A program made the position numbers and the translations under genes. From an uncultured Desulfobacterales bacterium (GTDB lineage: Bacteria; Desulfobacterota; Desulfobaccia; Desulfobaccales; 0-14-0-80-60-11), in NCBI GenBank assembly GCA_964522695.1, contig CAZFWX010000002.1, positions 1-60,585 of the forward strand: a DNA stretch of 60,585 nt, read 5' to 3'. The notes under the pieces were generated by a model. It was given only the letters and a program-made list of their open reading frames with translations. It was not told the DNA's origin and ran no database searches. Positions 2,575 to 56,720 of the stretch are shown one piece after another. How positions within the stretch are numbered: the first letter of the stretch is position 1; the number at the start of each line of letters is the position of its first letter.

Positions 2575-3318
2575 TTAGTCCTCGCTTTTTAGTTTGATCA
2601 GCAGGCGCAGGATTTCCAGGTAGAGCCAAATCAGCGTCACCATGAGCCCGAAGGCGGCGAACCATTCCATGAACCGGGGGGCGCCCTGGGCCACGCCGTT
2701 TTCGATAAAGTCGAAGTCCAGGACCAGGTTCAGGGCGGCGATCACCACCACGAAGACGCTGAAGGCGATGCCGATCCAGCCGCCCTGGTGGATATAGGGG
2801 ATCTTGACGCCGAACAGTCCCAGGAGGAAGGTGGCCAGGTAGATGACGAAAATGCCGCCCGTTGCCGCCACCACGCCCAGCTTGAAATTTTCCGTGGCCC
2901 GGATGAGGCCGGAGCTATAAGCCAGCAGGAGGCACAGCAGGGTGCCGAAGGTCAGCGTTACGGCCTGGATGACGATGCCGGAGAACTGGGCTTCCGCGAA
3001 GGCCGAGACTCCGCCGATGACCAGGCCTTCCAACAGGGCGTACAGGGGCGCGGTCACCGAAGCCCATTCTTTTTTAAAGATGGTGACCAGCCCCACCACG
3101 AGCCCCCCCACCACGCCAGTGAGGAGCAGGGGGGTCACCGTGGCGGGATCACGGGTGAGAAAGAACTGCCTCCAGGTCCAGAACGCAGTGATGAGCACGC
3201 AGGCAAGCAGAAGAAAGCTTTTATTGACCGTGCCTTGCAGGGTCATGGCCTCGGCCGGAGCCACCCGGGGCAGGCCGGCAAAAGTGGTTTGGCTGAGGGC
3301 GGGATTGCCGCTGGCCAT
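2575..3318 (-). CDS. Bax-inhibitor-1-like (BaxI_1/COG4760-type) integral membrane protein
   Basis: 247 aa with about 7 TM segments. The C-terminal motif MEWFAAFGLMVTLIWLYLEILRLL is typical of this family. GGAGGAG RBS. Confidence 0.8.
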   Translation of the reverse strand: MASGNPALSQTTFAGLPRVAPAEAMTLQGTVNKSFLLLACVLITAFWTWRQFFLTRDPATVTPLLLTGVVGGLVVGLVTIFKKEWASVTAPLYALLEGLVIGGVSAFAEAQFSGIVIQAVTLTFGTLLCLLLAYSSGLIRATENFKLGVVAATGGIFVIYLATFLLGLFGVKIPYIHQGGWIGIAFSVFVVVIAALNLVLDFDFIENGVAQGAPRFMEWFAAFGLMVTLIWLYLEILRLLIKLKSED

Positions 3319-3545
3319 AATTTTCTCCTCCTATGATCAACTTCAAGGCTGCGGCCGGCGTCAGGACCGGCCTGAACGGGGGGTCGTCAGTGGCCGGATG
3401 GCCGCCGGACCCTTTGCCGTTTTTTCGGCTGCATCCGGTCAGAACTGAAACATGGAGTTTCGGCGCCTGAACAAGTTGCCATCCGCAACCGCCATAAGAC
3501 GGCGTATATCCTATTATACTGGTAATCACCGGCAATTTGTGCAAA

Positions 3546-3561
3546 TGGCATCAGACTTGCT
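3546..3561 (+). promoter_or_regulatory. Candidate sigma-54 (-24/-12) promoter upstream of the RiPP cassette
   Basis: TGGCAT-CAGAC-TTGCT compared with the consensus TGGCAC-N5-TTGCW, with correct GG/GC spacing. It lies about 175 nt upstream of the GTG of the PqqD-like gene. This is a single-site match only. Confidence 0.3.
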
Positions 3562-3735
3562 AAAATATTTCCGTTTCGGTGGCAGTTGCCAAGGCTAATT
3601 TGGTATGCTAGCCAAAATTTAATCTAAAATCCATCGTCAGGGAACGGCCCGCCTGAAGAGCCATCGGGCCAGGCTCCCGGTCCGGAACCGCGTCGCCCCT
3701 GAAGGCAGCAGGCTCCCCTGACAGGAGAAGGGAAA

Positions 3736-4023
3736 GTGACTCTGCAAGACAAACCCGTGGCCAATCCCCTGGTGGTATTGCGCAAGGAGTTCGATGATTG
3801 GGCCGTGCTCTTTGACCCTGACACCGGCCATGCCTACGGCCTCAACCCGGTCAGCGTCCTGATCTGGCAGTTCCTGGACGGCCGGCACACCGTGGAGGAT
3901 ATCGTCCGGGAGGTCCAGGCCGCATGTGAGGACGTGCCCGAAGCCGCGGCAGAGCATGTGCAGGCATTCATCGCCGACCTGCTGAAAAACGGCCTGGCGG
4001 GTTATGACTACCAGCCCAAGTGA
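3736..4023 (+). CDS. PqqD-family peptide chaperone (RiPP recognition element); ScmD-like
   Basis: 95 aa. WAVLFDPDTGHAYGLNPVSVLIWQFLDGRHTVEDIV...FIADLLKNGL fits the PqqD pattern. GTG start with AGGAG 8 nt upstream. It overlaps the next gene by 20 nt. Confidence 0.85.
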   Translation: MTLQDKPVANPLVVLRKEFDDWAVLFDPDTGHAYGLNPVSVLIWQFLDGRHTVEDIVREVQAACEDVPEAAAEHVQAFIADLLKNGLAGYDYQPK

Positions 4024-5134
4024 TACCCCCCTCAAGGTGATGCAATCACCCCGTTCGGTGGAGGTGGCCATCACCACCCGCTGCAATCTGCGCTGCGCTT
4101 ACTGCTCCCACTTCACCTCCGCCGCGGATGTGGCCCATGATCTTCCCACCGGAGAGTGGCTCCAGTTCTTTGCGGACCTGGGGCGCCGGGCGGTGATGGA
4201 GGTGACCCTGGAAGGGGGCGAGCCCCTGTTGCGCCGGGATTTGCCCCAGCTCATCGACGGCATCGTCAAGAACCGCATGCGCTTCACCATCCTGACCAAC
4301 GGCACGCTCATCACCGAGGACCTGGCCGTGTTCTTGGCCGGGACCCGGCGCTGCAACCAAGTGCAGGTCTCCCTGGACGGCTCCATGCCTGAGACCCACG
4401 ACGTCTGCCGGGGCGAGGGGACCTTTCACCGGGCGTTAAACGGCATCCGCATCCTGCAACGCCACGGCGTGTCCGTCTCCGTGCGGGTGACCATTCACCG
4501 CCACAACGTGCGGGACCTGGCGGGGGTGGCCCGGCTGCTCCTGGAAGAATTGGGCCTGCCCGGATTCTCCACCAACGCGGCCTCCTTCATGGGAATGTGC
4601 CGTTCCCAGGCCGACAGGGTGCAACTCACCGTGGAGGACCGGTCTTTAGCCATGGAGACTCTCTGGGAGCTGAATCAGCAATACGGCGGCCGCATCACCG
4701 GGTCCGCCGGGCCGGTGGCGGAGGTCTATGACTGGCTCCAGATGGAGGCGGCCCGGCAGGAGGGCCGGGAACCCATGGAGGGCCGGGGGGTCCTGGTGGC
4801 CTGCGGCGGCGTCATGAGCAAGCTGGCGGTGCGGGCCGACGGCGTGCTGACCCCGTGCATGCAACTGTGCCATCTGGAACTGGGGCGCATCAACCAGGAC
4901 GACCTGGGCGAGGTCTGGGTGCACCATCCCCAACTCACCCGGCTGCGCCAGCGGAACACCATGGCCTTGAGCGACTTCCCATTCTGTCAGGGCTGTCCCT
5001 ATATCCCTTATTGCACCGGCAACTGTCCGGCTTTGGCCTACACCATGGCGGGTGAGGAGAATCATCCCGCGCCGGACGCCTGCCTCAAGCGCTTTCTGGA
5101 AGCAGGAGGGCGTCTGCCTGATGTCCCCATCTGA
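4004..5134 (+). CDS. Radical SAM/SPASM domain maturase (ScmE/ScmF-type), first copy
   Basis: CNLRCAYC (CxxxCxxC) near the N-terminus and a C-terminal Cys-rich SPASM region (CGGV...TPC...FCQGCPYIPYCTGNCP). Confidence 0.9.
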   Translation: MTTSPSDTPLKVMQSPRSVEVAITTRCNLRCAYCSHFTSAADVAHDLPTGEWLQFFADLGRRAVMEVTLEGGEPLLRRDLPQLIDGIVKNRMRFTILTNGTLITEDLAVFLAGTRRCNQVQVSLDGSMPETHDVCRGEGTFHRALNGIRILQRHGVSVSVRVTIHRHNVRDLAGVARLLLEELGLPGFSTNAASFMGMCRSQADRVQLTVEDRSLAMETLWELNQQYGGRITGSAGPVAEVYDWLQMEAARQEGREPMEGRGVLVACGGVMSKLAVRADGVLTPCMQLCHLELGRINQDDLGEVWVHHPQLTRLRQRNTMALSDFPFCQGCPYIPYCTGNCPALAYTMAGEENHPAPDACLKRFLEAGGRLPDVPI

Positions 5135-6242
5135 GAAATCCCCGGTCCTTTATCCCCTGACCAACATCTATTTTTTCCTGACCGCGGGATGCAACCTGCG
5201 CTGCCGCCACTGCTGGTTTGTTCCCGAAACTCAAGAGGCTCCCCAGACCCGGGGCGGGGTGGAGTTTGACCTCTTCGAGCACATCATCAGGCAGGCCACG
5301 GCCATGGGGGTGGGCGGGGTCAAGCTCACCGGGGGGGAGCCCCTTTTGCACCCCCGCATCAAAAACATCCTGGAGTTGCTCCTGGAAGAGAACCTGGGGC
5401 TCATGTTGGAAACCAACGGCATCCTGCTGACCCCGGAGTTGGCCCGGCTCCTGGCCCGTTTTCCCAGCGTGCAGGTGTCCGTCAGCCTGGACAGCCCCGA
5501 AGCCGGGGTGCACGAGTGGGTGCGGGGCCGGCCGGGCTGCTTTGCCGAGACCCTCAAGGGCATGGCCCACCTGGCGGAGGCCGGCGTGCCCTTCCAGGTC
5601 ATCATGACCCTCATGCGCCGGAACCGGGAGCAGATGGAGGCCATCATTCCCTTCGCGCGCCAGCAGGGCGCGGGCCTGGTGAAATTCAACATCGTCCAGC
5701 CCTTGTCCCGGGGAGAGCAGCTTTACGCCAGTGATGAGGCCCTGAGCGTGCCGGAACTGGTGGAACTGGGGCGCTGGGTGGAAGGGGACCTCTCCCGCGG
5801 CGCAGAGTTGCCTGTCCTTTTTCACCATCCTCCAGCCTTCCAGCCCTTGTCCCGGATGATCCGGGATAACAGCCTGGATTGCCACAGGTGCGGCATCCTG
5901 GGCATTATCGGGGTGCTCCCCAATGGCGCCTGGGCCCTGTGCGGCCTGTCCGAGGAGGTGCCTGAACTTGTCTTCGGCCACGCCGCCCGCGACCGGCTGG
6001 ACGAGGTCTGGCACGAAACCCCCCTGCTGCGGGAATTGCGCCAGGGCCTGCCTCACCGCCTGGAAGGGGTGTGCCATGACTGCCTCCATCAGGCCGTCTG
6101 CCAGGGAAGCTGCATCGCCCAGAATTACATCACGACCAGGAGCCTCTGGGCGCCTTTCTGGTATTGCCGGCAGGCCGAGGAGCTGGGCCTCTTTCCCCCC
6201 TCCCGGAAACGGCAGGCCATAACCTCCTTCGCCCGCGGGTGA
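5121..6242 (+). CDS. Radical SAM/SPASM domain maturase (ScmE/ScmF-type), second copy
   Basis: CNLRCRHC motif and a SPASM-type C-terminus (CGILG...ALCGL...CHDCLHQAVCQGSC). I moved the start to ATG 5121, which overlaps the upstream stop by 14 nt. The track start at 5052 would add a 23-aa out-of-family extension. Confidence 0.9.
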   Translation: MSPSEKSPVLYPLTNIYFFLTAGCNLRCRHCWFVPETQEAPQTRGGVEFDLFEHIIRQATAMGVGGVKLTGGEPLLHPRIKNILELLLEENLGLMLETNGILLTPELARLLARFPSVQVSVSLDSPEAGVHEWVRGRPGCFAETLKGMAHLAEAGVPFQVIMTLMRRNREQMEAIIPFARQQGAGLVKFNIVQPLSRGEQLYASDEALSVPELVELGRWVEGDLSRGAELPVLFHHPPAFQPLSRMIRDNSLDCHRCGILGIIGVLPNGAWALCGLSEEVPELVFGHAARDRLDEVWHETPLLRELRQGLPHRLEGVCHDCLHQAVCQGSCIAQNYITTRSLWAPFWYCRQAEELGLFPPSRKRQAITSFARG

Positions 6243-6327
6243 AGAAAATTTAGCTGAGGTCAGGCCCGACAAACCACAATCTTTTTTCCATATTCTCAAT
6301 TTCCGTATGGAAAAGAGAATAATTCTC

Positions 6328-6357
6328 TTGCATTATAAGAATGACTTTCCCTATAAT
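6328..6357 (+). promoter_or_regulatory. Near-consensus sigma-70 promoter inside the cassette, upstream of the small precursor-like ORF
   Basis: TTGCAT (6328-6333), an 18-nt spacer, then TATAAT (6352-6357), in an AT-rich island between GC-rich genes. Confidence 0.45.
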
Positions 6358-6472
6358 CAGGGCTTAATGTGGTATCCCTGCGGCATGTGTGACCGCGGTT
6401 TGGTCACTCTGCCCCCGTTAGCTGCAAGGGAGATTTTGGTTTCTGCGATCTACCATGTTGGAGGGGAATGGT

Positions 6473-6610
6473 ATGAAGGAAAAGAAAAAGCTGCCTTATG
6501 AAAAGCCCATCTTGACCCGTCTGGATGCACCGGCGGCCGCAGGCTTTCGCAGTTGCGGCGCCGGGTCCGTAGCGAACCTTTGCCCCCGGGGTGCGGTGGT
6601 CAACAGGTAG
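6473..6610 (+). CDS. Candidate RiPP precursor peptide (45 aa), not in the ORF track
   Basis: The ATG 6473..TAG 6610 ORF translates to MKEKKKLPYEKPILTRLDAPAAAGFRSCGAGSVANLCPRGAVVNR. GGAGG (6460-6464) lies 8 nt upstream. It sits between the second rSAM/SPASM gene and the ScmC-like gene on the same strand. The layout is leader-like then core-like, with 2 Cys. Confidence 0.5.
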   Translation: MKEKKKLPYEKPILTRLDAPAAAGFRSCGAGSVANLCPRGAVVNR

Positions 6611-6658
6611 GAAAATTAACCCCAGGGTGTCCCGAACGAGACAAAATTCCTGTTGGGG

Positions 6659-6693
6659 GGGGAGGCTGTGTCCTCCCCTCTGCCGTTATTTTT
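6659..6693 (+). terminator. Hairpin plus T-rich tract just after the precursor-like ORF (possible leaky terminator/attenuator)
   Basis: GGGGAGG (6659-6665) pairs with CCTCCCC (6672-6678) around a 6-nt loop. The T-run TTATTTTT at 6686-6693 is not directly adjacent to the stem, so this is weaker than a canonical terminator. Confidence 0.3.
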
Positions 6694-6780
6694 CGTGAAC
6701 TCATTTCGCTGCTCTCCGGACCGTATCGCTTTTTCCTTGCCCCACCCCTTCCTGGCCTGCCCAGCCTGCGAGGCCCGCAC

Positions 6781-7737
6781 ATGAACCCTCCCGCCGGACC
6801 ATCCGTGCGGCTGCGGGACCTCCTCCAGGATGGCTGTAATGGCGGTGACGCCTCAATTCCGGATCAGGGCTTCTGCCTTGACCTCGCCGACGGCAACCGC
6901 TGGTGGCTTACAGCCTGCACTCCCACCTTCCCCTGGCTGACGCGGCTGGCGGCCATTATGGAACTGCCCCCTGGTTTGCCTGACGGCCGCCCGGAACTGA
7001 TCTACACCGAAGCCTTGCCGGCCCGGGATTTGGCCGCGTTGGGCTTTGTCCCGGAAGAAGTGGGCTGGGGGCCGAAAGGCCAGCGGCCTTTGCGCTGCTG
7101 GCGCCACCCCGGTCTGCCGGACGTGCTTTGCGAATTGCACCATGACGGGAGCGCAGAATTCTTTCTGATCAACATGTGGAACTCCCTCACTGTCATCTAC
7201 CTGGACAGCGTGTGGCGGGGCGGCCTGCCTCTCCACGCCGGCCTGGCGGCTTTTCAAGGCCAGGGCGTGCTCTTCGCGGCGCCGGGGGATACGGGCAAAT
7301 CCACCACCTGCCGCCGTCTGCCGCGGCCCTGGGAGATGCTGGACGACGATGAAACCCTGGTGGTGAAAACCCCTGGGGCCTTCTACGTGGCTCACCCCTT
7401 CCCCACCTGGTCCGACTATCTCTTCCAAAGGGGGATGCCTACCTGGAATGTGCAGCATACTGTGCCGGTCAAGGCCGTCTGCTTTCTGGAGCAGCATCCC
7501 GAAAACAGAATTACGCCCCTGAGCCAAGCCCAGGCTGCGGTGTGCATCACCCAATCAGTGGAGCAGATTTGCACCAGGACCTGGGAGAATCTCCCCCGGG
7601 AAGAGATGGTCCGCCGCCGGACGCAAGTCTTCGCCAACGCCGCGGACCTGGCCCTGGCCGTGCCGGCTTTCCGGATGCGCCTCAGTCTGCACGGCCACTT
7701 TTGGGAAGACCTGGAGCGCCTCCTGGGCTGGCGGTGA
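6781..7737 (+). CDS. ScmC-like conserved cassette protein with a P-loop (HprK-type kinase-like core?)
   Basis: 318 aa from ATG 6781, with GAGG 9 nt upstream. The Walker-A-like GDTGKST is at 7285-7305. The track start at 6553 (TTG) would overlap the precursor-like ORF. Confidence 0.7.
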   Translation: MNPPAGPSVRLRDLLQDGCNGGDASIPDQGFCLDLADGNRWWLTACTPTFPWLTRLAAIMELPPGLPDGRPELIYTEALPARDLAALGFVPEEVGWGPKGQRPLRCWRHPGLPDVLCELHHDGSAEFFLINMWNSLTVIYLDSVWRGGLPLHAGLAAFQGQGVLFAAPGDTGKSTTCRRLPRPWEMLDDDETLVVKTPGAFYVAHPFPTWSDYLFQRGMPTWNVQHTVPVKAVCFLEQHPENRITPLSQAQAAVCITQSVEQICTRTWENLPREEMVRRRTQVFANAADLALAVPAFRMRLSLHGHFWEDLERLLGWR

Positions 7738-7813
7738 CGCAGCAAATTTTTTATCGTGGGGAAGTCGGCGAACTGTGGCTCCTCACCCCCTTCCTTAGAA
7801 AAAGTCCTTTATA

Positions 7814-8395
7814 ATGGCAGCCATGAGCCGGCGTATGCTCTATTTCGGTCCCAGCATGAATCCCACCCTCCGCCCGGGGGACGACCTTGTCATCGCGCCC
7901 TGTGCCGGCCGCGAGGTCCGGGTGGGGGACGTGGTGGTCTTTGCCCACCCCCACAATCCTGGAGAACGTGTGGTCCACCGGGTGGCGGCAGTGGAGGAAA
8001 AGGGCCTGCGGACCCGGGGAGACAATTGCCCGGCTGCCGATCCCTGGCTGGTGGAGCCTGATACGATCATCGGCTATGTGGCCGCGGTGCGGCGGGGCGG
8101 CCGCACCTTGCCGGTCCGGCAAGGGGTGATGGGGAAAATTCACGTCTTTCAGACATTCAGGCGCCTGGATGAAATGATCTCCGCCTGGCTCCGGCCCCTC
8201 TACCGCCGCCTGGCGGCCACAACCCCTCTCAAAGGCTGGCTTCATCCCCGCCTTCTGGTTTTTGAGCGCGCCGGCGGCCGGGAGTGTCAGCTCTGGCTGG
8301 GTCCGTGGCTCATCGGCCGCCGCCTCCCCCACGGGGACGGCTGGCAGATCAAGCGCCCCTTCCGCCTCTTTGTAGATGAAACTGAGTTGCCGTGA
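7814..8395 (+). CDS. S26-family signal-peptidase-like protease, ER/archaeal (SipW/Sec11) type, without a TM segment
   Basis: 193 aa with FGPSMNPTL (Ser box), VVHRV (His where bacterial SPase I has the catalytic Lys) and TRGDNCPAADP (GDN box). I see no hydrophobic anchor. Confidence 0.75.
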   Translation: MAAMSRRMLYFGPSMNPTLRPGDDLVIAPCAGREVRVGDVVVFAHPHNPGERVVHRVAAVEEKGLRTRGDNCPAADPWLVEPDTIIGYVAAVRRGGRTLPVRQGVMGKIHVFQTFRRLDEMISAWLRPLYRRLAATTPLKGWLHPRLLVFERAGGRECQLWLGPWLIGRRLPHGDGWQIKRPFRLFVDETELP

Positions 8396-8477
8396 GGCTG
8401 CCGCAGACCCGTAGCCACTGGCTTATCCGCCCAACTGGGAAAGCCCGGTGGGGCAGGTCTCCGTGCCCGCCGTCTTT

Positions 8478-8502
8478 GGTGGCACAGGCTTCCAGCCTGG
8501 GC
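8478..8502 (-). repeat. REP-like unit, family CACAGGCT-GGAA-AGCCTGTGCCACC (reverse orientation)
   Basis: GGTGGCACAGGCTTCCAGCCTGGGC. Related copies are at 11405-11456, 11704-11730, 22222-22247, 30785-30810, 46084-46109 and 55808-55833. Confidence 0.7.
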
Positions 8503-8590
8503 ATCGGACCGGCAAGAGGCTGTGGTGTGAGCAAAATATCTTCAAGCAGCGCTGTCCGGCAAGGATTATGCTTGAAACCCGGTTTTTAAG

Positions 8591-8626
8591 CCCCCTCCCC
8601 ACGGTGGGAGGGGGTTGGGGGAGGGG
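8591..8626. repeat. G-rich hairpin unit (solo copy)
   Basis: CCCCCTCCCCACGGTGGGAGGGGGTTGGGGGAGGGG has the same architecture (C-run/loop/G-run hairpin plus a G-rich tail) as the units at 12.9, 15.1, 28.3, 34.7, 35.8, 38.5 and 57.9 kb. Confidence 0.75.
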
Positions 8627-8776
8627 ACAGGAGGAGTGCACGCTTCCCTTTCCGGAAATAGGCGGGAGATGCTCAGCATTGTCATTCAGGCCCCGGACAT
8701 CAGGGTTTAAGGGCGATGGGCTGTCCCAAAGATGCCTTGAGCAAATATCGGGCCGGACAGCACTGATCTTCAAGAC

Positions 8777-8813
8777 AAAAAAAGGGCGCCGGAATCATCT
8801 GGCCCCGGCGCCC
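8777..8813 (-). terminator. Rho-independent terminator of the small minus-strand gene 8834..9046
   Basis: On the minus strand, GGGCGCCGG, a 12-nt loop and CCGGCGCCC are followed by TTTTTTT (plus-strand A-run 8777-8783). It lies about 20 nt after the stop. Confidence 0.6.
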
Positions 8814-8833
8814 TCGAGAAGACCGGCAGTTTA

Positions 8834-9046
8834 TTAGGACAGGGCTACAGGCTCATAATAGGCGACCCCGTCGCCCCACCAGCTCAGCTTGTAATTCTCC
8901 CCTTTGAAGTGCAGACCGGGGCGGACGTACAAAATCACCCTTTCCACCAAACGCCCGTGAAAGGGGTGGGAAAAGACCGCGGTGACGATTTCATTGGGAG
9001 CGACCTGCTCTGTGTTTGTCATATCCGTGCCGTACTCGTTTAACAC
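8834..9046 (-). CDS. Small hypothetical protein (70 aa)
   Basis: GTG start with GGAGGA 8 nt upstream and a terminator directly downstream. No family recognised. Confidence 0.5.
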   Translation of the reverse strand: MLNEYGTDMTNTEQVAPNEIVTAVFSHPFHGRLVERVILYVRPGLHFKGENYKLSWWGDGVAYYEPVALS

Positions 9047-9251
9047 CTGGTATATCCTCCACTTGCCAAACCTGTTTTTCCCGGCCCTGGGGTCAGAAAT
9101 TTCTTTTTCCCGGGCTGCGCGGGATGGTCTGGAAATTCATGAATTACCTTCTTTCCATTCATTGTAGTTATAAAATTGCTAATGTCAATAAAGCCGGAAA
9201 TTACCTCCGGCGTCTCCCCAGAAGGGGCGGAAGCAGGTATAATGCAGCACC

Positions 9252-11363
9252 ATGCAGCCCGGCCCCACGGACATTTTACTGCGCATCGACAATCTGACGG
9301 TCCATTACGGCGCGGCCCAGGCACTCTTTGGGGTGGATCTGGCCGTGCGCCGGGGGGAGACGGTGGCTCTCGTGGGGGCCAACGGCGCGGGCAAGACCAG
9401 CCTGCTCAAGGCCGTCATGGGGCTGCTCAAACCCAGCGGCGGGCGCATCAGCTTCGACGGCCGGGACGTCACCGGCTCCACCGCCGCCGCCATGGCCGGC
9501 CGGGGGGTGGCCCTGGCCCCGGAAGGCCGGGAAATGTTCGGCGATCTCTCCGTCCGGGAGAACCTGGAATTGGGCGCCCTGGCTCTCTCCCCCGGCCGCC
9601 GGGAAATGGCCCGCCGGCTGGAAGAAGTCCTGGGGCGCTTTCCCAAGCTAAGGGACCGACTCTCCCAGCGCACCGCCACGCTCTCCGGCGGCGAGCAGCA
9701 GATGGTGGCCATCGGCCGGGCCTTAATGGCCGGGCCCCGCCTGTTGCTCCTGGACGAGCCCAGTCTGGGCCTCGCGCCCTTGATCACCGACGAAATCTTT
9801 GACATCATTCATCAGCTCTCACGCTCCGGGGTAACGATCCTCCTGGTGGAGCAAAACGCCGCCCGGGCCCTCACCGCTTCGACCTCGGCCTATCTCCTGG
9901 CCAACGGCCGGATCGTCGGCGCGGGACTGAGCGGCAAGCTCCTGGTGGACCCGGAACTGCGCCGGGCCTTTTTGGGCGCCGCCTCTGACAACAACCCGGC
10001 CGCCAGCCGCCTGGGCGCGGCGGGCCTCACCAATATCCGACTGGAAAAGCCCATGACTACGCCGAAAACCTTCATGCCCCCTTTCACGACCGGGGAAGAA
10101 TTGCAGGCCCACCAGGTGCAGGGCCTCCAATGGACCGTGCGCCACGCCTATGAGGGCTCGAGCTTCTACCGGGCCAAGCTGGATGAGGCAGGCGTCACGC
10201 CCGGGGACATCCGTTCCCTTGCGGACCTGGCCAAACTCCCCCTTACCACCCCCGAGGACCTGCGGGACGGCTACCCCTTTCCGTTCCGGGCCGTGCCGTA
10301 TGAGCAGATCGTGCGCATCCACGCCTCCTCCGGCACCACCGGCAAGCGGAAAATTTTGGGTTACACGCAAAAGGACCTGGACGACTGGGCCCATTTCTTC
10401 GCCCGCTGCTACGAAATGGCCGGCGTCACCACTCTGGACCGGGTGCAGATCGCCGTGGGCTATGGCGTGTGGACCGCGGGCGTGGGCTTCCAGTTGGGCG
10501 CGGAAAAACTGGGCGCCCTGGTGATCCCCGTGGGCCCGGGCAACCTGGATATGCACTGCGAATTCTTCCTGGATTTGCAGCCCACGGTCTTTTGCTGCAC
10601 CGCGTCCATGGGCCTGCTCATGGCCGAAGAGATCCACAAGCGGGGCATCGCCCACAAGATCAATATCAAAAAGATCATTTACGGCTCGGAGCGCTCCAGC
10701 GTCTCCATGCGCAAAAAGATCGCCGACCTCTTCGGCGGCGTGGAACTCTTCGACATCGTCGGCATGACCGAACTCTACGGCCCGGGCACCGGCATCGAGT
10801 GTCCTCACCACGACTGCATCCACTACTGGGGCGACTACTACATCCTGGAAATCCTGGACCCCGACACCTTGACGCCCCTGCCCGACGGCGAGTGGGGCGA
10901 GATGGTGGTGACCACGCTCACGAAGCAAGCCGCGCCCCTGATCCGCTACCGCACCCACGACATCACCCGCATCATCCCGGCCCCCTGCACCTGCGGCACG
11001 GTGCTCCCCCGGCATTCGCGCCTTCGGGGCCGCACCGACGACATGTTCAAGTTCCGGGGCGTCAACATTTACCCCTCCTCAATCGACCGGCTGCTCTCCG
11101 AGGTCCCCGGCCTGGGCTCCGAATACCAGGTGCATCTCACCCGGGATGCGGCGGGCCGGGACCACATGCTGCTCAAAGTGGAGCGGGGCGAGGGCGTGGA
11201 GCCCCGCCGGGCCGACGAACTGACCCGGGAGATCATCTACGTTATCAAACACAAACTCCTGGTCACCCCCACCGTGGAGGTGACGGCCTACGGGGATCTG
11301 CCCCGCTCGGAGCGCAAAAGCAAAAGGGTCTTTGACACGCGCATCACCGATTCGGTGGTGTAG
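9252..11363 (+). CDS. In-frame fusion ORF: LivF-type branched-chain amino acid ABC ATPase (aa 1-242) + linker + phenylacetate-CoA ligase PaaK (from aa 268)
   Basis: The N-terminal part has GANGAGKTS (Walker A), LSGGEQQM and LLLLDEP, and ends in ...ELRRAFLGA like LivF. There is no stop codon. After a 25-aa linker, MTTPKTF...SSGTTGKRK...RSERKSKRVFD is typical of PaaK. An internal ATG is at 10053. Confidence 0.8.
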   Translation: MQPGPTDILLRIDNLTVHYGAAQALFGVDLAVRRGETVALVGANGAGKTSLLKAVMGLLKPSGGRISFDGRDVTGSTAAAMAGRGVALAPEGREMFGDLSVRENLELGALALSPGRREMARRLEEVLGRFPKLRDRLSQRTATLSGGEQQMVAIGRALMAGPRLLLLDEPSLGLAPLITDEIFDIIHQLSRSGVTILLVEQNAARALTASTSAYLLANGRIVGAGLSGKLLVDPELRRAFLGAASDNNPAASRLGAAGLTNIRLEKPMTTPKTFMPPFTTGEELQAHQVQGLQWTVRHAYEGSSFYRAKLDEAGVTPGDIRSLADLAKLPLTTPEDLRDGYPFPFRAVPYEQIVRIHASSGTTGKRKILGYTQKDLDDWAHFFARCYEMAGVTTLDRVQIAVGYGVWTAGVGFQLGAEKLGALVIPVGPGNLDMHCEFFLDLQPTVFCCTASMGLLMAEEIHKRGIAHKINIKKIIYGSERSSVSMRKKIADLFGGVELFDIVGMTELYGPGTGIECPHHDCIHYWGDYYILEILDPDTLTPLPDGEWGEMVVTTLTKQAAPLIRYRTHDITRIIPAPCTCGTVLPRHSRLRGRTDDMFKFRGVNIYPSSIDRLLSEVPGLGSEYQVHLTRDAAGRDHMLLKVERGEGVEPRRADELTREIIYVIKHKLLVTPTVEVTAYGDLPRSERKSKRVFDTRITDSVV

Positions 11364-11404: not shown

Positions 11405-11730
11405 GGTGGCGCCGGCATCTTGCCGGTGCCCGCACAGGCTGGGAGCCTGCGCCACCAAAGGGGCGGCGGTTCTACACTTTCATTGCTTTGGGGTCGTAGG
11501 ATAGGCATGAATACCTGGTTCCCAAGCTCCTGCTTGGGAATACCGTTTTCGCCCACGCCCTGCTTGGGCACATCTTCATAGTCCTGCCAATCTGCTGGAA
11601 CGGCGTGATTCCCTTTGCCAGGCAGCAGCTTGGCGGGCCAGGTGGTTCCCCACCAGGAGCTTGGGACCCAGGCGGCAAGCGACCCACAAAATCTAAAGAT
11701 TCCGGTGGCGTAGGCTTTCCAGCCTGTGCG
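11405..11730. repeat. Mosaic cluster of REP-like palindromic units filling the paaK-downstream intergenic region
   Basis: Units at 11405-11430, 11431-11456 and 11704-11730 belong to the ...CTGTGCCACC family. Units at 11517-11540, 11551-11570 and 11644-11669 belong to the TTCCCAAGC...GCTTGGGAA family. The ORFs called here in the track (e.g. 11344..11838) simply translate these units. Confidence 0.75.
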
Positions 11731-13548: not shown

Positions 13549-13648
13549 GCCAGGGCAAGGGAAAACTGGTTATTAACATTCATATTATCCGGCGCCGAGC
13601 CGGGCAGTTCAAAGAGTTCCTGCACAAAGCAGGTGCGAAACAGCAACT

Positions 13649-13810
13649 GTAGGGCGGGAAAGCATGGCGCATCCCGCCTGCCGTATCATTTTTATTAATG
13701 TCATTCGTTTCGAGTTAAAGATATAAGGATGATGTAATTTCCATCCATTATGATCCTGTAACTCATGGTGCGAGGGAAGAGGCGGGATGTGTTAAAGCTT
13801 TCCCGCCCTG
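13649..13810. repeat. Inverted pair of GGGCGGGAAAGC..CATCCCGCC units flanking about 100 nt of AT-rich DNA
   Basis: GTAGGGCGGGAAAGCATGGCGCATCCCGCCTGC (13649-13681) and GGCGGGATGTGTTAAAGCTTTCCCGCCCTG (13781-13810, opposite orientation). Further copies are at 30835-30864 and 56691-56720. Confidence 0.75.
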
Positions 13811-15071: not shown

Positions 15072-15177
15072 TTCTCCCTCCATCTGGATGGGGGAGGGCC
15101 GGGGTGGGGGTGAAATTTCTGGGGAGAGCTTTACCTTGTCCCCCTCCCCCCAGCCCCTCCAAACTGGGGAGGCGGAG
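15072..15177. repeat. Inverted pair of G-rich hairpin units (MITE-like), locus B
   Basis: The left unit (15072-15112) is ...CTCCCTCCATCTGGATGGGGGAGGGCCGGGGTGGGGGTG. The right unit (15139-15177) is CCCCCTCCCCCCAGCCCCTCCAAACTGGGGAGGCGGAG, in reverse orientation. Confidence 0.8.
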
Positions 15178-19750: not shown

Positions 19751-20500
19751 TTAACCATTGAGATGCTGATACTCGTTAATCACCTCCAGGGGGTCGCCCA
19801 TGGCGGCGACGCGCCCTTGGCGCAAAAGCATGGCGCGGTCACAGAAGCGTTGCACCATGACCAGGTCATGGGTTACGAGGATCACCGATTTCTGTTCCCG
19901 GCGGTAGCGTTCCACTTCATCAAGGCATTTCTTCTGGAAAATGGCATCTCCCACGGCCAGCACCTCGTCCAGCAAGAGAATCTCCCGGTTGGCGTGGATG
20001 GCCACGGCGAAGGCCAGCCGCACCTGCATCCCGGACGAGTAATTCTTGATTTTCTGGTCGATGAAGCGCTCCATCTCGGCGAAGGCGACGATTTCCTGGA
20101 ATTTTTCATCAATCTGGCGTCTGGATAAGCCGAGGACCGTGCCGTTCAGATAAATGTTGTCCCGGCCGGACAGTTCCGGGTGAAAGCCGATGCCCAGTTC
20201 CAGAAAAGGGGAGATGTGGCCGTTGACCAGCACGCGTCCCCGGTCGGGGTTGTAGATGCCGGCGATGATTTTCAGCAGGGTGGATTTGCCGGAGCCGTTC
20301 CGGCCGATGATGCCGAAGAACTCGCCCCGGCTCACCTCAAAGGAGACGTCGTCCAGGGCCATGAAGGTTTCATAGGTAAGGGGACGGAACAGGTTGCGGC
20401 ATCGGGTCACGAAATAGCCCCGCATGGTGTTAATGGCCTCGTGAGGGATGGTGAAAGTCTTGGAGAGGTGCTCGACCCGAATGCTGACTTCTGCGGACAT
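19751..20500 (-). CDS. Polysaccharide/O-antigen export ABC transporter ATP-binding protein (Wzt/TagH/KpsT type)
   Basis: 249 aa with GRNGSGKST (Walker A), YSSGMQVRLAFA (signature) and ILLLDEVLAVGD (Walker B), as in the ABC-2 exporter ATPase family. Confidence 0.9.
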   Translation of the reverse strand: MSAEVSIRVEHLSKTFTIPHEAINTMRGYFVTRCRNLFRPLTYETFMALDDVSFEVSRGEFFGIIGRNGSGKSTLLKIIAGIYNPDRGRVLVNGHISPFLELGIGFHPELSGRDNIYLNGTVLGLSRRQIDEKFQEIVAFAEMERFIDQKIKNYSSGMQVRLAFAVAIHANREILLLDEVLAVGDAIFQKKCLDEVERYRREQKSVILVTHDLVMVQRFCDRAMLLRQGRVAAMGDPLEVINEYQHLNG

Positions 20501-20676
20501 GAGTAAGAATTATACAAAGTCGAAAGGCATAACGCCACTTTCCGGGCGCAGAAAACTGCGGTTTCGGCTATAATGGCAGGTTAAGGGAAGAAAAAGGGAA
20601 TAGGCCGCATACCCCTTTTCCTTAGGCACTGCGCCGCACTCTTGGCAAAATATTGTCAGGATCCCCCGAGAACCGC

Positions 20677-30784: not shown

Positions 30785-30864
30785 GCACAGGCTGGAAAGC
30801 CTGTGCCACCAGAAAATTTGAATATTTTTAACAGGTAGGGCGGGAAAGCGAAGCGCATCCCGCC
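30785..30864. repeat. Compound REP locus: CACAGGCTGGAAAGCCTGTGCCACC unit plus GGGCGGGAAAGC..CATCCCGCC unit
   Basis: GCACAGGCTGGAAAGCCTGTGCCACC (30785-30810) and GTAGGGCGGGAAAGCGAAGCGCATCCCGCC (30835-30864). Confidence 0.75.
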
Positions 30865-54478: not shown

Positions 54479-55593
54479 ACACCTGGCGGCGCAAGATCCC
54501 TCACATCTCAGGGGCGCCAGCCCGGACCCGGCGGAGATGTCCTGCCTTGGTTCTGCGGCTGGCCAAGGGCTTAGGCCGCGGTCTGGCTTTCTGCCTGTGC
54601 CTGGTCATGGTATGGGCCGGCGGGACTGCGGCTGCCGCGGGCCAGCGGGAGGTGCGCCAGCTCTTTCCCATCCAGGTCAAGGGCAAATGGGGCTACATGG
54701 ACCGGAAGGGGAAGGTGGTGATCAAGCCTGCCTTCGATTCCGCCGGGGAATTTCATGAGGGCCTGGCCTGGGTCGAGATGGATTTTAAGCGCGGTTTCAT
54801 CAATGCTGCGGGGAAGGTGGTCATTCCCCCCCAGTACACCTCCACCAATGACTTCTCCGAAGGCCTGGCCGGCGTGGCCGTGCCCGGCAAGGGCCTGGGC
54901 TACATCGACAAAACCGGCAAGATCCACATCGAACCCCACTTCGAAGCCGTGGAAAACTTCTCCGAAGGCCTGGCCGCGGTCATCATCCACAGCCGCTACG
55001 GCTTCATCGACAAATCCGGCAAAGTGGTGATCCCGGCCCAGTTCGAGATCACCTCCGAAGACATCACCTCCCCCAGTTTTGGCGGCGGCCTGGCCCGGGT
55101 GCGCCGGGAGAAAAAGGTGGGCTACGTGGACCGGACCGGCAAGATGGCCATCCCTGCCACCTATGGGGAAGGGCTGCCCTTCGCAGAAGGCCTGGCCGCG
55201 GTGAAGGTGGATGACAAGTGGGGCTTTATCGACAAGACCGGCAAGCTGGTCATCGCCCCGCAATTCACCAATGCCTTGAGCTTTGCCGAAGGCCTGGCGC
55301 CGGTGGCCGCAGGCGACCAATGGGGCTATATCGATAAAACCGGCAGGCAGGTCATCGCCCCCCAGTTCTTCCGGGCGCATCCCTTTGCCGAAGGTCTGGC
55401 CGCGGTGGAAGTGGAAGGCAAATACGGCTACATCGACGGCACGGGCCGCATGGTCATCGGCCCCCGCTTCGTGGTCACCGTGGAAGGGGACACCATTTCT
55501 TTCTGGGGCGGGCTGGCCGCGGTGGAACTGGATGAAAACCAGTGGGGATACATCGACAAAAAGGGCGAGTTCGTCTGGCTGTCCAAGGACTAA
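54460..55593 (+). CDS. WG-repeat (KWG) protein, probably secreted; start uncertain (GTG 54460 or TTG 54547)
   Basis: About nine repeats of the type [20 protein letters not shown].eFsEGLA, preceded by a hydrophobic segment [20 protein letters not shown]. Confidence 0.75.
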
Positions 55594-56613: not shown

Positions 56614-56690
56614 CAAAAACGGCGGACCGATTTACTCAAGATGAGGATGCAGGGTTTCACCCGATTGGCTTACTATCGCCAGAAGTTCGG

Positions 56691-56720
56691 CAGGGCGGGA
56701 AAGCGAAGCACATCCCGCCA
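56691..56720 (+). repeat. GGGCGGGAAAGC..CATCCCGCC unit
   Basis: CAGGGCGGGAAAGCGAAGCACATCCCGCCA. Same family as 13649, 13781 and 30835. Confidence 0.7.

Follow-up and report, generated by a model that had tools for sequence, protein, structure and literature searches.

The stretch of DNA analysed here, below called the window, covers 60,585 nucleotides (nt) of an uncultured Desulfobacterales bacterium (assembly GCA_964522695.1, contig CAZFWX010000002.1, positions 1 to 60,585 of the forward strand). Close to its beginning lie six co-directional open reading frames (ORFs), all of which were found at the coordinates given in a first-pass annotation made from the sequence alone (Table 1). That annotation assigned them to a SynChlorMet (SCM) cassette, and the assignment is confirmed: ScmD, ScmE, ScmF and ScmC all exceed the curated equivalog cutoffs of NCBIfam, with scores that chance could not plausibly give, and the searches proposed there, with the Scm models and with the SPASM and PqqD models of Pfam, gave all the expected matches. 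Since each component exceeds its curated equivalog cutoff, the region 3736-8395 is, as judged by these models, a complete SynChlorMet-type cassette composed of a PqqD protein, two radical S-adenosylmethionine (SAM) enzymes with SPASM domains, ScmC and a soluble S26 peptidase.

The cassette genes are co-located and co-directional, as expected of an SCM system. Their order, scmD-scmE-scmF-scmA(-like)-scmC-S26 (D-E-F-a-C-P), matches the loci L001, L019, L024 and L035 and most others among the 79 related loci that we gathered by the ScmC profile and on each of which the cassette genes were mapped. The genes had been described as tightly packed or overlapping; this is correct for scmD, scmE and scmF (overlaps of 20 nt for scmD/scmE and 14 nt for scmE/scmF), but the remaining genes are separated by gaps of 76-230 nt, namely 230 nt between scmF and the 45-residue (45-aa) ORF, 170 nt between this ORF and scmC, and 76 nt between scmC and the S26 gene.

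Table 1. Features of the SCM cassette and its immediate neighbours in the window (aa, amino acid residues; RRE, recognition element of ribosomally synthesised and post-translationally modified peptides; HMM, hidden Markov model; AF2, AlphaFold2)
Feature	Position	Strand	Description	Basis or remark
scmD	3736-4023	+	PqqD-family peptide chaperone (RRE), 95 aa	TIGR04248, PF05402
scmE	4004-5134	+	radical SAM/SPASM enzyme, 376 aa	TIGR04250; Pfam Radical_SAM and SPASM
scmF	5121-6242	+	second radical SAM/SPASM enzyme, 373 aa	TIGR04251; Pfam Radical_SAM and SPASM
scmA-like gene	6473-6610	+	candidate ScmA-like precursor peptide, 45 aa, MKEKKKLPYEKPILTRLDAPAAAG / FRSCGAGSVANLCPRGAVVNR	own precursor HMM; position 5' of scmC
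hairpin	6656-6681	+	GC-rich hairpin, then GCCGTTATTTTT	terminator-like scan and fold; directly 3' of the precursor gene
scmC	6781-7737	+	P-loop protein of predicted PEP-carboxykinase/HPr-kinase-like fold, 318 aa	TIGR04249; AF2; Foldseek
S26 peptidase gene	7814-8395	+	predicted cytoplasmic S26 peptidase, Sec11/SipW (Ser-His-Asp) type, 193 aa	TIGR02228; Peptidase_S26; start at 7835 also possible
BaxI_1 gene	2575-3318	-	upstream neighbour, divergent from the cassette	
70-aa ORF	8834-9046	-	downstream neighbour, convergent on the cassette	no Pfam family

The scmD gene starts with a GTG codon preceded by AGGAGAAGGGAAA, and its product matches TIGR04248 with 135.4 bits (E = 5.9e-40, cutoff 100) and the PqqD family PF05402 with 65.5 bits. 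ScmE matches TIGR04250 with 597.9 bits (cutoff 400) over the full length of the model (1-358/358), and ScmF reaches 501.5 bits with TIGR04251 (cutoff 400). A CxxxCxxC motif and a Cys-rich C-terminus had been claimed for both radical SAM proteins, and indeed each of them possesses the CX3CX2C motif (CNLRCAYC at residues 27-34 of ScmE, CNLRCRHC at residues 24-31 of ScmF) together with the full seven-Cys SPASM pattern CX9-15GX4C ... CX2CX5CX3C ... C. Neither enzyme has an N-terminal RRE domain, the radical SAM match beginning at about residue 20. By sequence, the closest solved structure for these enzymes is SkfB. The equivalog cutoffs of the characterised maturases are not reached (PapB 88 bits against 340, StsB 105 against 625, SkfB 73 against 300, AlbA 80 against 850); the next-best matches of ScmF include the MftC model with 119 bits, which is below its cutoff of 265, and the PqqE model gives 93 bits against a cutoff of 381.

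ScmC matches TIGR04249 with 254.4 bits (cutoff 125) and is 58% identical to its nearest genome match, L001. Across 20 diverse homologs H152, the P-loop G169-x-x-G-K-S-T175, D189-D190-E191 and an HPFPTW motif are invariant. The AF2 model of the protein has a mean predicted local distance difference test score (pLDDT) of 85 and a predicted template modelling score (pTM) of 0.86; when it was compared by Foldseek with the PDB, the best 50 of the 76 matches at E <= 0.001 were all phosphoenolpyruvate carboxykinases (PEPCK; E from 3e-7 to 3e-5, TMq 0.40-0.51). The ScmC profile searched against PDB sequences returned only HPr kinase/phosphorylase (E = 0.07), and the His, P-loop and DD of ScmC are aligned to those of HprK 1jb1. 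In structural classification, the C-terminal domain of HPr kinase and PEPCK represent one shared fold, and the catalytic His, Walker A motif and DD typical of HPr kinase/PEPCK-like P-loop kinases are all present in ScmC. Motifs, profile and predicted structure together make ScmC a predicted P-loop phosphotransferase of the HPr kinase/PEPCK fold, probably serving as a kinase of the peptide. Three related loci contain several scmC paralogs, each extra one preceded by its own long and very Cys-rich precursor or precursors (L025, DEFCaaCPaaaCaaa; L057, DEFaCaCPXN; L058, DEFaCaCaCPXN, in the one-letter gene code used above with X for an exporter); therefore, ScmC appears to be matched to its peptide.

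The peptidase ORF matches the archaeal-type signal peptidase I model TIGR02228 with 54.4 bits (cutoff 51.85) as well as Pfam Peptidase_S26, and it is below the cutoff of the SodX model TIGR02754 (47.7 bits against 63.25). Aligned to human SEC11A, it shows the Ser of GPSMNPT, a His replacing the bacterial Lys (VVHRV) and the Asp of GDN. Residues S14, H55, D70 and D76 are invariant in all 41 S26 homologs from SCM loci, and 40 of these homologs have no hydrophobic stretch. The solubility claimed for the window protein agrees with its sequence, in which the maximal Kyte-Doolittle mean over 19 residues is 1.26, no hydrophobic segment occurs and the catalytic Ser stands already at residue 14; a membrane anchor of the kind that holds an S26 active site outside the cytoplasm is absent. 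The AF2 model (pLDDT 87) retrieves SEC11C and SEC11A as the best Foldseek matches, followed by bacterial signal peptidases I, and the protein is extended by a conserved, cassette-specific C-terminal part of about 90 residues, made of a helix and a small beta domain. A database search revealed 347 full-length relatives, whose annotation says no more than "signal peptidase I" or "hypothetical". The gene lies 3' of scmC in most related loci and there is no SCM-specific model for it. As far as its conservation can tell, this peptidase is the fifth enzyme of the system, and probably it is the leader peptidase.

The 45-aa ORF between scmF and scmC was already listed in the first-pass annotation and is real, but it was not recognised there as a precursor; our HMM places it among divergent ScmA-like peptides. 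In the peptide, MKEKKKLPYEKPILTRLDAPAAAGFRSCGAGSVANLCPRGAVVNR, a Lys-rich leader carrying YEKPIL (YxxPxL) is followed by the junction A-A-G and by two C-x-x-G repeats, which form a core with two Cys, a single Ser and no Thr. Its ATG is preceded by GGAGGGG, and the Shine-Dalgarno sequence TGGAGGGGAA is conserved in L001. Nine leader codons are identical between the two loci, six differ synonymously and three non-synonymously, which suggests that the leader evolves under purifying selection. The precursor family was modelled on the leader and first repeats, with a threshold of at least 12 bits (reversed-sequence decoys gave 10.9 bits at most). At this threshold 87 ORFs were detected in 55 of 80 sources (the 79 related loci and the window), in most related loci just 5' of scmC, in the gap between scmF and scmC. 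For the leave-out test, an HMM was built without the window ORF and without its closest relative L001; searched against all six-frame ORFs of the 60.6-kb window, it found the ORF 6473-6610 as the sole match (22.5 bits, E = 5e-6), the next ORF having 7.2 bits. These searches place the 45-aa ORF in a conserved family of small peptides accompanying scmC, and very probably it is the peptide substrate of the cassette.

Members of this family share a Lys-rich N-terminus, the leader motif [YWF]-x-x-P-x-L-x-x-L, an A-x-G junction and a core built of approximately 10-residue repeats C-x-[TSN]-G-[GST]-[SG]-A-x-x-x. Among 85 members, the Pro of the leader motif is present in 100%, Leu at +5 in 82%, and Tyr, Trp or Phe at the first position in 97%; Ala occurs at -2 of the junction Gly in 54%, and the distance from Tyr to Gly is 15-18 residues. 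In the repeats, Gly is found at Cys+3 in 70%, and the commonest Cys-Cys spacing is 10-11 residues. The cores differ greatly between loci in Cys number (1-20) and length (6-151 residues), a locus having 1-4 or more precursor copies, and acidic residues are rare in the cores (D 3.7%, E 1.9%). According to the first-pass annotation, the precursor of the SCM cassette had been stated to be unknown; this is out of date, as NCBIfam already contains the precursor model TIGR04252 (SCM_precur_ScmA, cutoff 35 bits), with which the peptides of the related loci reach 20-27 bits only. Pfam has no family for ScmA-like peptides, and in public annotation they appear as "hypothetical protein".

In three related loci (L011 at 5854-6477, L012 at 5601-6314 and L048 at 7246-7962), ScmD and a ScmA-like precursor form one continuous reading frame, and in the L011 fusion the leader has no preceding Met. 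Such natural fusions of an RRE with a precursor provide a Rosetta-stone argument that ScmD would bind the precursor peptide. Around the precursor gene of the window, an overlapping ORF of 64 aa (6307-6501) was rejected as spurious: besides running into the precursor start, it matches no family and lies in an AT-richer intergenic stretch. A perfect TATAAT seen by eye at 6352-6357 was not returned by the promoter scan for this gene, its upstream hexamer agreeing in 3/6 positions only, and no promoter is claimed. The hairpin directly 3' of the gene may represent a partial terminator or attenuator.

Outside the window, the order D-E-F-a-C-P is conserved in Desulfobacterota, Nitrospirae, Aminicenantes, Omnitrophota, Saganbacteria, Victivallales and methanogenic archaea. 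The 79 loci come from species other than those of the named genomes (Syntrophobacter, Chlorobium, Methanocella and NaphS2). An ATP-binding cassette (ABC) exporter (ABC_membrane and ABC_tran) accompanies the cassette in 38 of the 79 loci and the "uncharacterised nucleotidyltransferase" PF14907 in 30 of them, both mostly co-directional. The window cassette has neither; no exporter is present in it or next to it, as the first-pass annotation had stated, and the only ABC-like matches of the window are the ATPase domain of a fusion ORF at 9252-11363 and, at 19754-20509, another ATPase match. With two repeats and without ABC exporter and PF14907 nucleotidyltransferase, the window version of the cassette is minimal. 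In five loci of Victivallales/Lentisphaerota (L041, L045, L052, L056 and L061), an ABC exporter is inserted between scmF and scmC (D-E-F-X-C-P); no precursor is found there at the usual place, and precursor-like ORFs occur elsewhere on the opposite strand. Five other loci (L011, L012, L018, L030 and L048) retain scmD, precursor and scmC, in most cases together with the peptidase, nucleotidyltransferase or exporter, and have no scmE or scmF within 8 kb; in L011, an HDOD/sensor-like gene lies on the opposite strand between the ScmD-precursor fusion and scmC. Several apparently conserved clusters of flanking ORFs turned out to be antisense shadows of cassette genes and were discarded.

With moderate confidence we suggest that the region 3736-8395 encodes a single SCM-type pathway for a peptide that is ribosomally synthesised and modified post-translationally (RiPP), arranged in the canonical order and operating as follows. 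The precursor would be translated from its own ribosome-binding site, and ScmD, a discrete PqqD-type recognition element, would bind its leader via the K-[YWF]-x-x-P-x-L motif, which is of the type recognised by the B1 proteins of lasso peptides. ScmD would then hand the core over to ScmE and ScmF; these two lack a recognition domain and may modify the C-x-x-G repeats, most likely by one thioether-type cross-link per Cys, that is, by two in the window peptide. Thioether cross-linking seems the most plausible chemistry; SkfB, which among solved structures is closest in sequence, forms thioethers. ScmC, genetically paired with the precursor, would phosphorylate the peptide, or activate it in another way, at the expense of ATP, and the S26 peptidase would cut the leader off in the cytoplasm, probably after the A-x-G preceding the first Cys (after Gly24). 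S26 peptidases prefer small residues at -3/-1, and the proposed A-x-G site fits this preference.

The comparison with described systems places this pathway among the SCM cassettes of NCBIfam (TIGR04248-TIGR04252): ScmC, ScmD, ScmE and ScmF exceed the cutoffs, and the order is that of most loci, with a Cys-repeat peptide 5' of scmC. The window differs from them in that its precursor is undetected by the ScmA model and has two repeats only, and in the absence of the exporter and nucleotidyltransferase that about half of the loci possess. With the sactipeptide and ranthipeptide systems (SkfB, AlbA, CteB, PapB), the SCM cassette shares SPASM radical SAM maturases with complete auxiliary-cluster Cys motifs, a leader-dependent substrate and a repetitive Cys core; the window combines such maturases with a core containing two Cys. 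In SCM, however, the maturase is not joined to the RRE, which is a PqqD protein of its own; the maturases come as two paralogs, accompanied by a kinase-fold protein and an S26 peptidase; and the SCM enzymes reach none of the cutoffs of the known maturases PapB, StsB, SkfB and AlbA. In addition, known ranthipeptide acceptors, for example those of PapB and QhpD, are Asp and Glu, whereas acidic acceptor residues are rare in the SCM cores.

A different part of the cassette resembles the clusters of phosphorylated and phosphoglycosylated lasso peptides (paeninodin, pseudomycoidin), which also have a discrete PqqD-type RRE, a YxxPxL leader about 16-19 residues before the core and an HPr-kinase-like P-loop enzyme, and many SCM loci contain PF14907 and an ABC exporter as well. 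The window shows both the PqqD-type RRE (the PF05402 match) and the YxxPxL leader (YEKPIL). At the same time, a lasso cyclase and a B2 cysteine protease are missing from the SCM cassette, in which leader removal is assigned to an S26 Ser-His-Asp peptidase; it has radical SAM enzymes and a Cys-repeat core instead, and the window peptide has no C-terminal Ser. No lasso cyclase (Asn-synthetase-like) and no B2 transglutaminase-like protease was found among the cassette ORFs, which all fall into other families, the rest of the window not having been scanned for them. In the lasso clusters, HPr-kinase homologs phosphorylate the precursor and a nucleotidyltransferase then adds hexoses to the phosphate (PMC8498205), and the YxxPxL motif of these precursors is located at -17 to -12 of the leader (PMC10368454). 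Pyrroloquinoline quinone (PQQ; PqqA/D/E) and mycofactocin (MftA/B/C) are similar to SCM in having a PqqD-family chaperone, a PqqE-like radical SAM/SPASM enzyme and a short precursor, and the window resembles them also in being exporter-less; SCM differs from them by missing the PqqE and MftC cutoffs, by its two radical SAM enzymes, by hypervariable repetitive cores and by the exporter in half of the related loci. As for the peptidase, the soluble or atypical S26 proteins (SodX, SipW, eukaryotic Sec11) share with it the Ser-His(-Asp) arrangement of the endoplasmic reticulum/archaeal type, and, like the Ni-superoxide dismutase maturation protease SodX, the SCM enzyme would remove an N-terminal extension inside the cell. 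It differs from these proteins by scoring below the SodX cutoff, by having no membrane anchor and by the cassette-specific C-terminal domain.

The identity of the five enzymes follows directly from their profile and motif matches, and several observations weigh against the pathway as a whole. We infer the order of steps, the chemistry of ScmE and ScmF, what ScmC acts on and where the leader is cut. No match of the window peptide to TIGR04252 occurs at E <= 1, this curated model being too narrow for the locus, and the core of the peptide, with only two Cys and one Ser, does not have the G-[ST]-G ending common among its relatives. The similarity of ScmC to HPr kinases is marginal in sequence (apart from the E of 0.07 in the PDB, 15.4 bits with TIGR04352, "HprK-related kinase A", against a cutoff of 200), and its Foldseek TM-score with PEPCK is only about 0.5. 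Terminator-like sites are not enriched in comparison with shuffles (7 found, 5.9 expected), so that the hairpin 3' of the precursor gene has no statistical support. Finally, the D-a-C-P or D-a-C-N loci with no radical SAM gene in their 8-kb flanks indicate that the pathway may have its core elsewhere than in the radical SAM step.

These observations leave room for other explanations, of which the least probable, and in our opinion a very improbable one, is that the 45-aa ORF is not the substrate, the true precursor being encoded elsewhere or the enzymes acting on a protein or small molecule. It would account for the failure with TIGR04252, for the two Cys and for the "hypothetical" status of such peptides in their sources, but it leaves unexplained why this ORF is the sole HMM match in six frames of 60.6 kb and stands exactly at the conserved position, why its leader appears to be under purifying selection in comparison with L001 while the Shine-Dalgarno sequence is conserved, and why fusions of ScmD with members of the precursor family exist. 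Quite unlikely, too, is a pathway for a peptide-derived redox cofactor similar to PQQ or mycofactocin, where the modified peptide or its fragment would stay inside the cell and serve an enzyme. The hosts are anaerobes, the window core is short, and PqqD is combined with enzymes resembling PqqE and MftC (119 bits for ScmF), although neither the PqqE nor the MftC cutoff is reached. From the missing exporter the first-pass annotation derived that the product may stay intracellular; the exporter is indeed absent in or near the window cassette, but for the family this argument is weak, since 38 of the 79 related loci have one and the cores are hypervariable. Cofactor precursors keep invariant reacting residues, whereas the variation in Cys number, length and copy number seen in SCM cores is typical of secreted natural products. 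Clustering of the flanking ORFs revealed no candidate client oxidoreductase conserved beside the cassette, and a cofactor is the less likely product for the SCM family; for the exporter-less two-repeat locus of the window it keeps a small probability.

Unlikely, though less so than the explanations above, is a non-kinase role of ScmC, either as a scaffold or chaperone that depends on nucleotide and is specific for its cognate precursor or in immunity or regulation, all covalent chemistry being performed by ScmE and ScmF. The one-to-one pairing of scmC with precursors would suit a binding partner as well, the kinase homology is weak in sequence, and the core of the window peptide offers a single Ser and no Thr. 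On the other hand, 20 diverse homologs all keep His152, the GKST P-loop and Asp189-Asp190, residues of catalytic type that align with the His, P-loop and DD of HprK; the loci devoid of radical SAM genes keep scmD, the precursor, scmC and the peptidase, implying that ScmC itself modifies the peptide; and the PF14907 nucleotidyltransferase is present in 30 loci, its lasso counterpart being known to decorate the phosphate installed by the kinase (PMC8498205). One can also suppose that SCM peptides are a distinct RiPP class defined by ScmC and not by the radical SAM pair: ScmC is paired one-to-one with its precursor, and the D-a-C-peptidase set persists in loci without radical SAM genes. ATP-dependent phosphorylation of Cys-x-x-Gly repeats combined with radical SAM chemistry would then yield an undescribed scaffold, and the exporter-less two-repeat version in the window could be an intracellular specialisation; this proposal is speculative and unlikely to be right. 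The RiPP pathway with ScmC as a probable peptide kinase remains the interpretation that we prefer.

The surroundings of the cassette agree with the earlier statement that it is bounded by divergent and convergent genes, there being minus-strand neighbours on both sides. The downstream 70-aa ORF has its own sigma-70-like promoter (11/12, 9188-9161) and a terminator-like hairpin with a 13-bp stem (8815-8782). An Rfam scan of 3200-9300 gave nothing near any gathering score, hence no riboswitch or known RNA in this region. Further downstream, a single plus-strand ORF of 703 aa (9252-11363) joins an ABC-type, LivF-like ATPase domain (ABC_tran) to an AMP-binding/AMP-binding_C_2 ligase, which is either an unusual fusion or the result of a missed stop or frameshift.

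The REP units (repetitive extragenic palindromes) reported at 8478-8626 were confirmed in part: this region holds single copies of two dispersed short elements, one of them REP-like, but no tandem pair of identical units. The REP-like element is a GC-rich palindrome, CCCCTCCCC-nnGG-TGGGAGGGGG followed by TTGGGGG, which is intergenic and dispersed throughout the window. Besides the copy at 8589-8635 there are at least five more, at about 12874, 28304, 34716, 35770 and 57875, as well as reverse-oriented copies near 15140, 28386, 34776, 35852 and 38446; what the reported units actually rest on is the copy 3' of the S26 gene. A second short repeat of about 25 nt, with 92-96% identity by local blastn, occurs at 8474-8499 and, in reverse orientation, at 11435-11460 and 30788-30811. 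A third dispersed element of 31 nt, GGTAGGGCGGGAAAGCGAAGCGCATCCCGCC, with a short hairpin inside, has copies at 13648-13678, 30834-30864 and 56689-56719 that are 87-94% identical. At 54690-55470 there are 6-7 tandem copies of a 102-nt coding repeat, 60-77% identical, apparently belonging to a repeat-domain protein.

This locus adds a new and fairly minimal member to a RiPP family that is known and computationally defined but experimentally unstudied; it is not a new kind of system. Our literature search, covering the main text of open papers without supplements, found nothing on the SCM system or its product, in agreement with the earlier remark that the product was undescribed. This is so although the SCM cassette occurs in methanogenic archaea and in many phyla of anaerobic bacteria and has been a named database family for years. 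Two points go beyond what the family names contain, namely the pairing of a kinase-fold enzyme with the precursor and a putative soluble leader peptidase of the Sec11 type. The wider precursor family, which is missed by the curated ScmA model, would improve the annotation of peptides now called "hypothetical". The window represents a compact testable version of the system, with five enzymes and a 45-residue substrate containing two modifiable repeats, so that its product can now be sought directly via the candidate precursor. The questions that this locus could address are the reaction performed by the radical SAM pair, the participation of a kinase-fold enzyme in a radical SAM RiPP pathway and the use of a cytoplasmic Sec11-type S26 protein as a RiPP leader peptidase.

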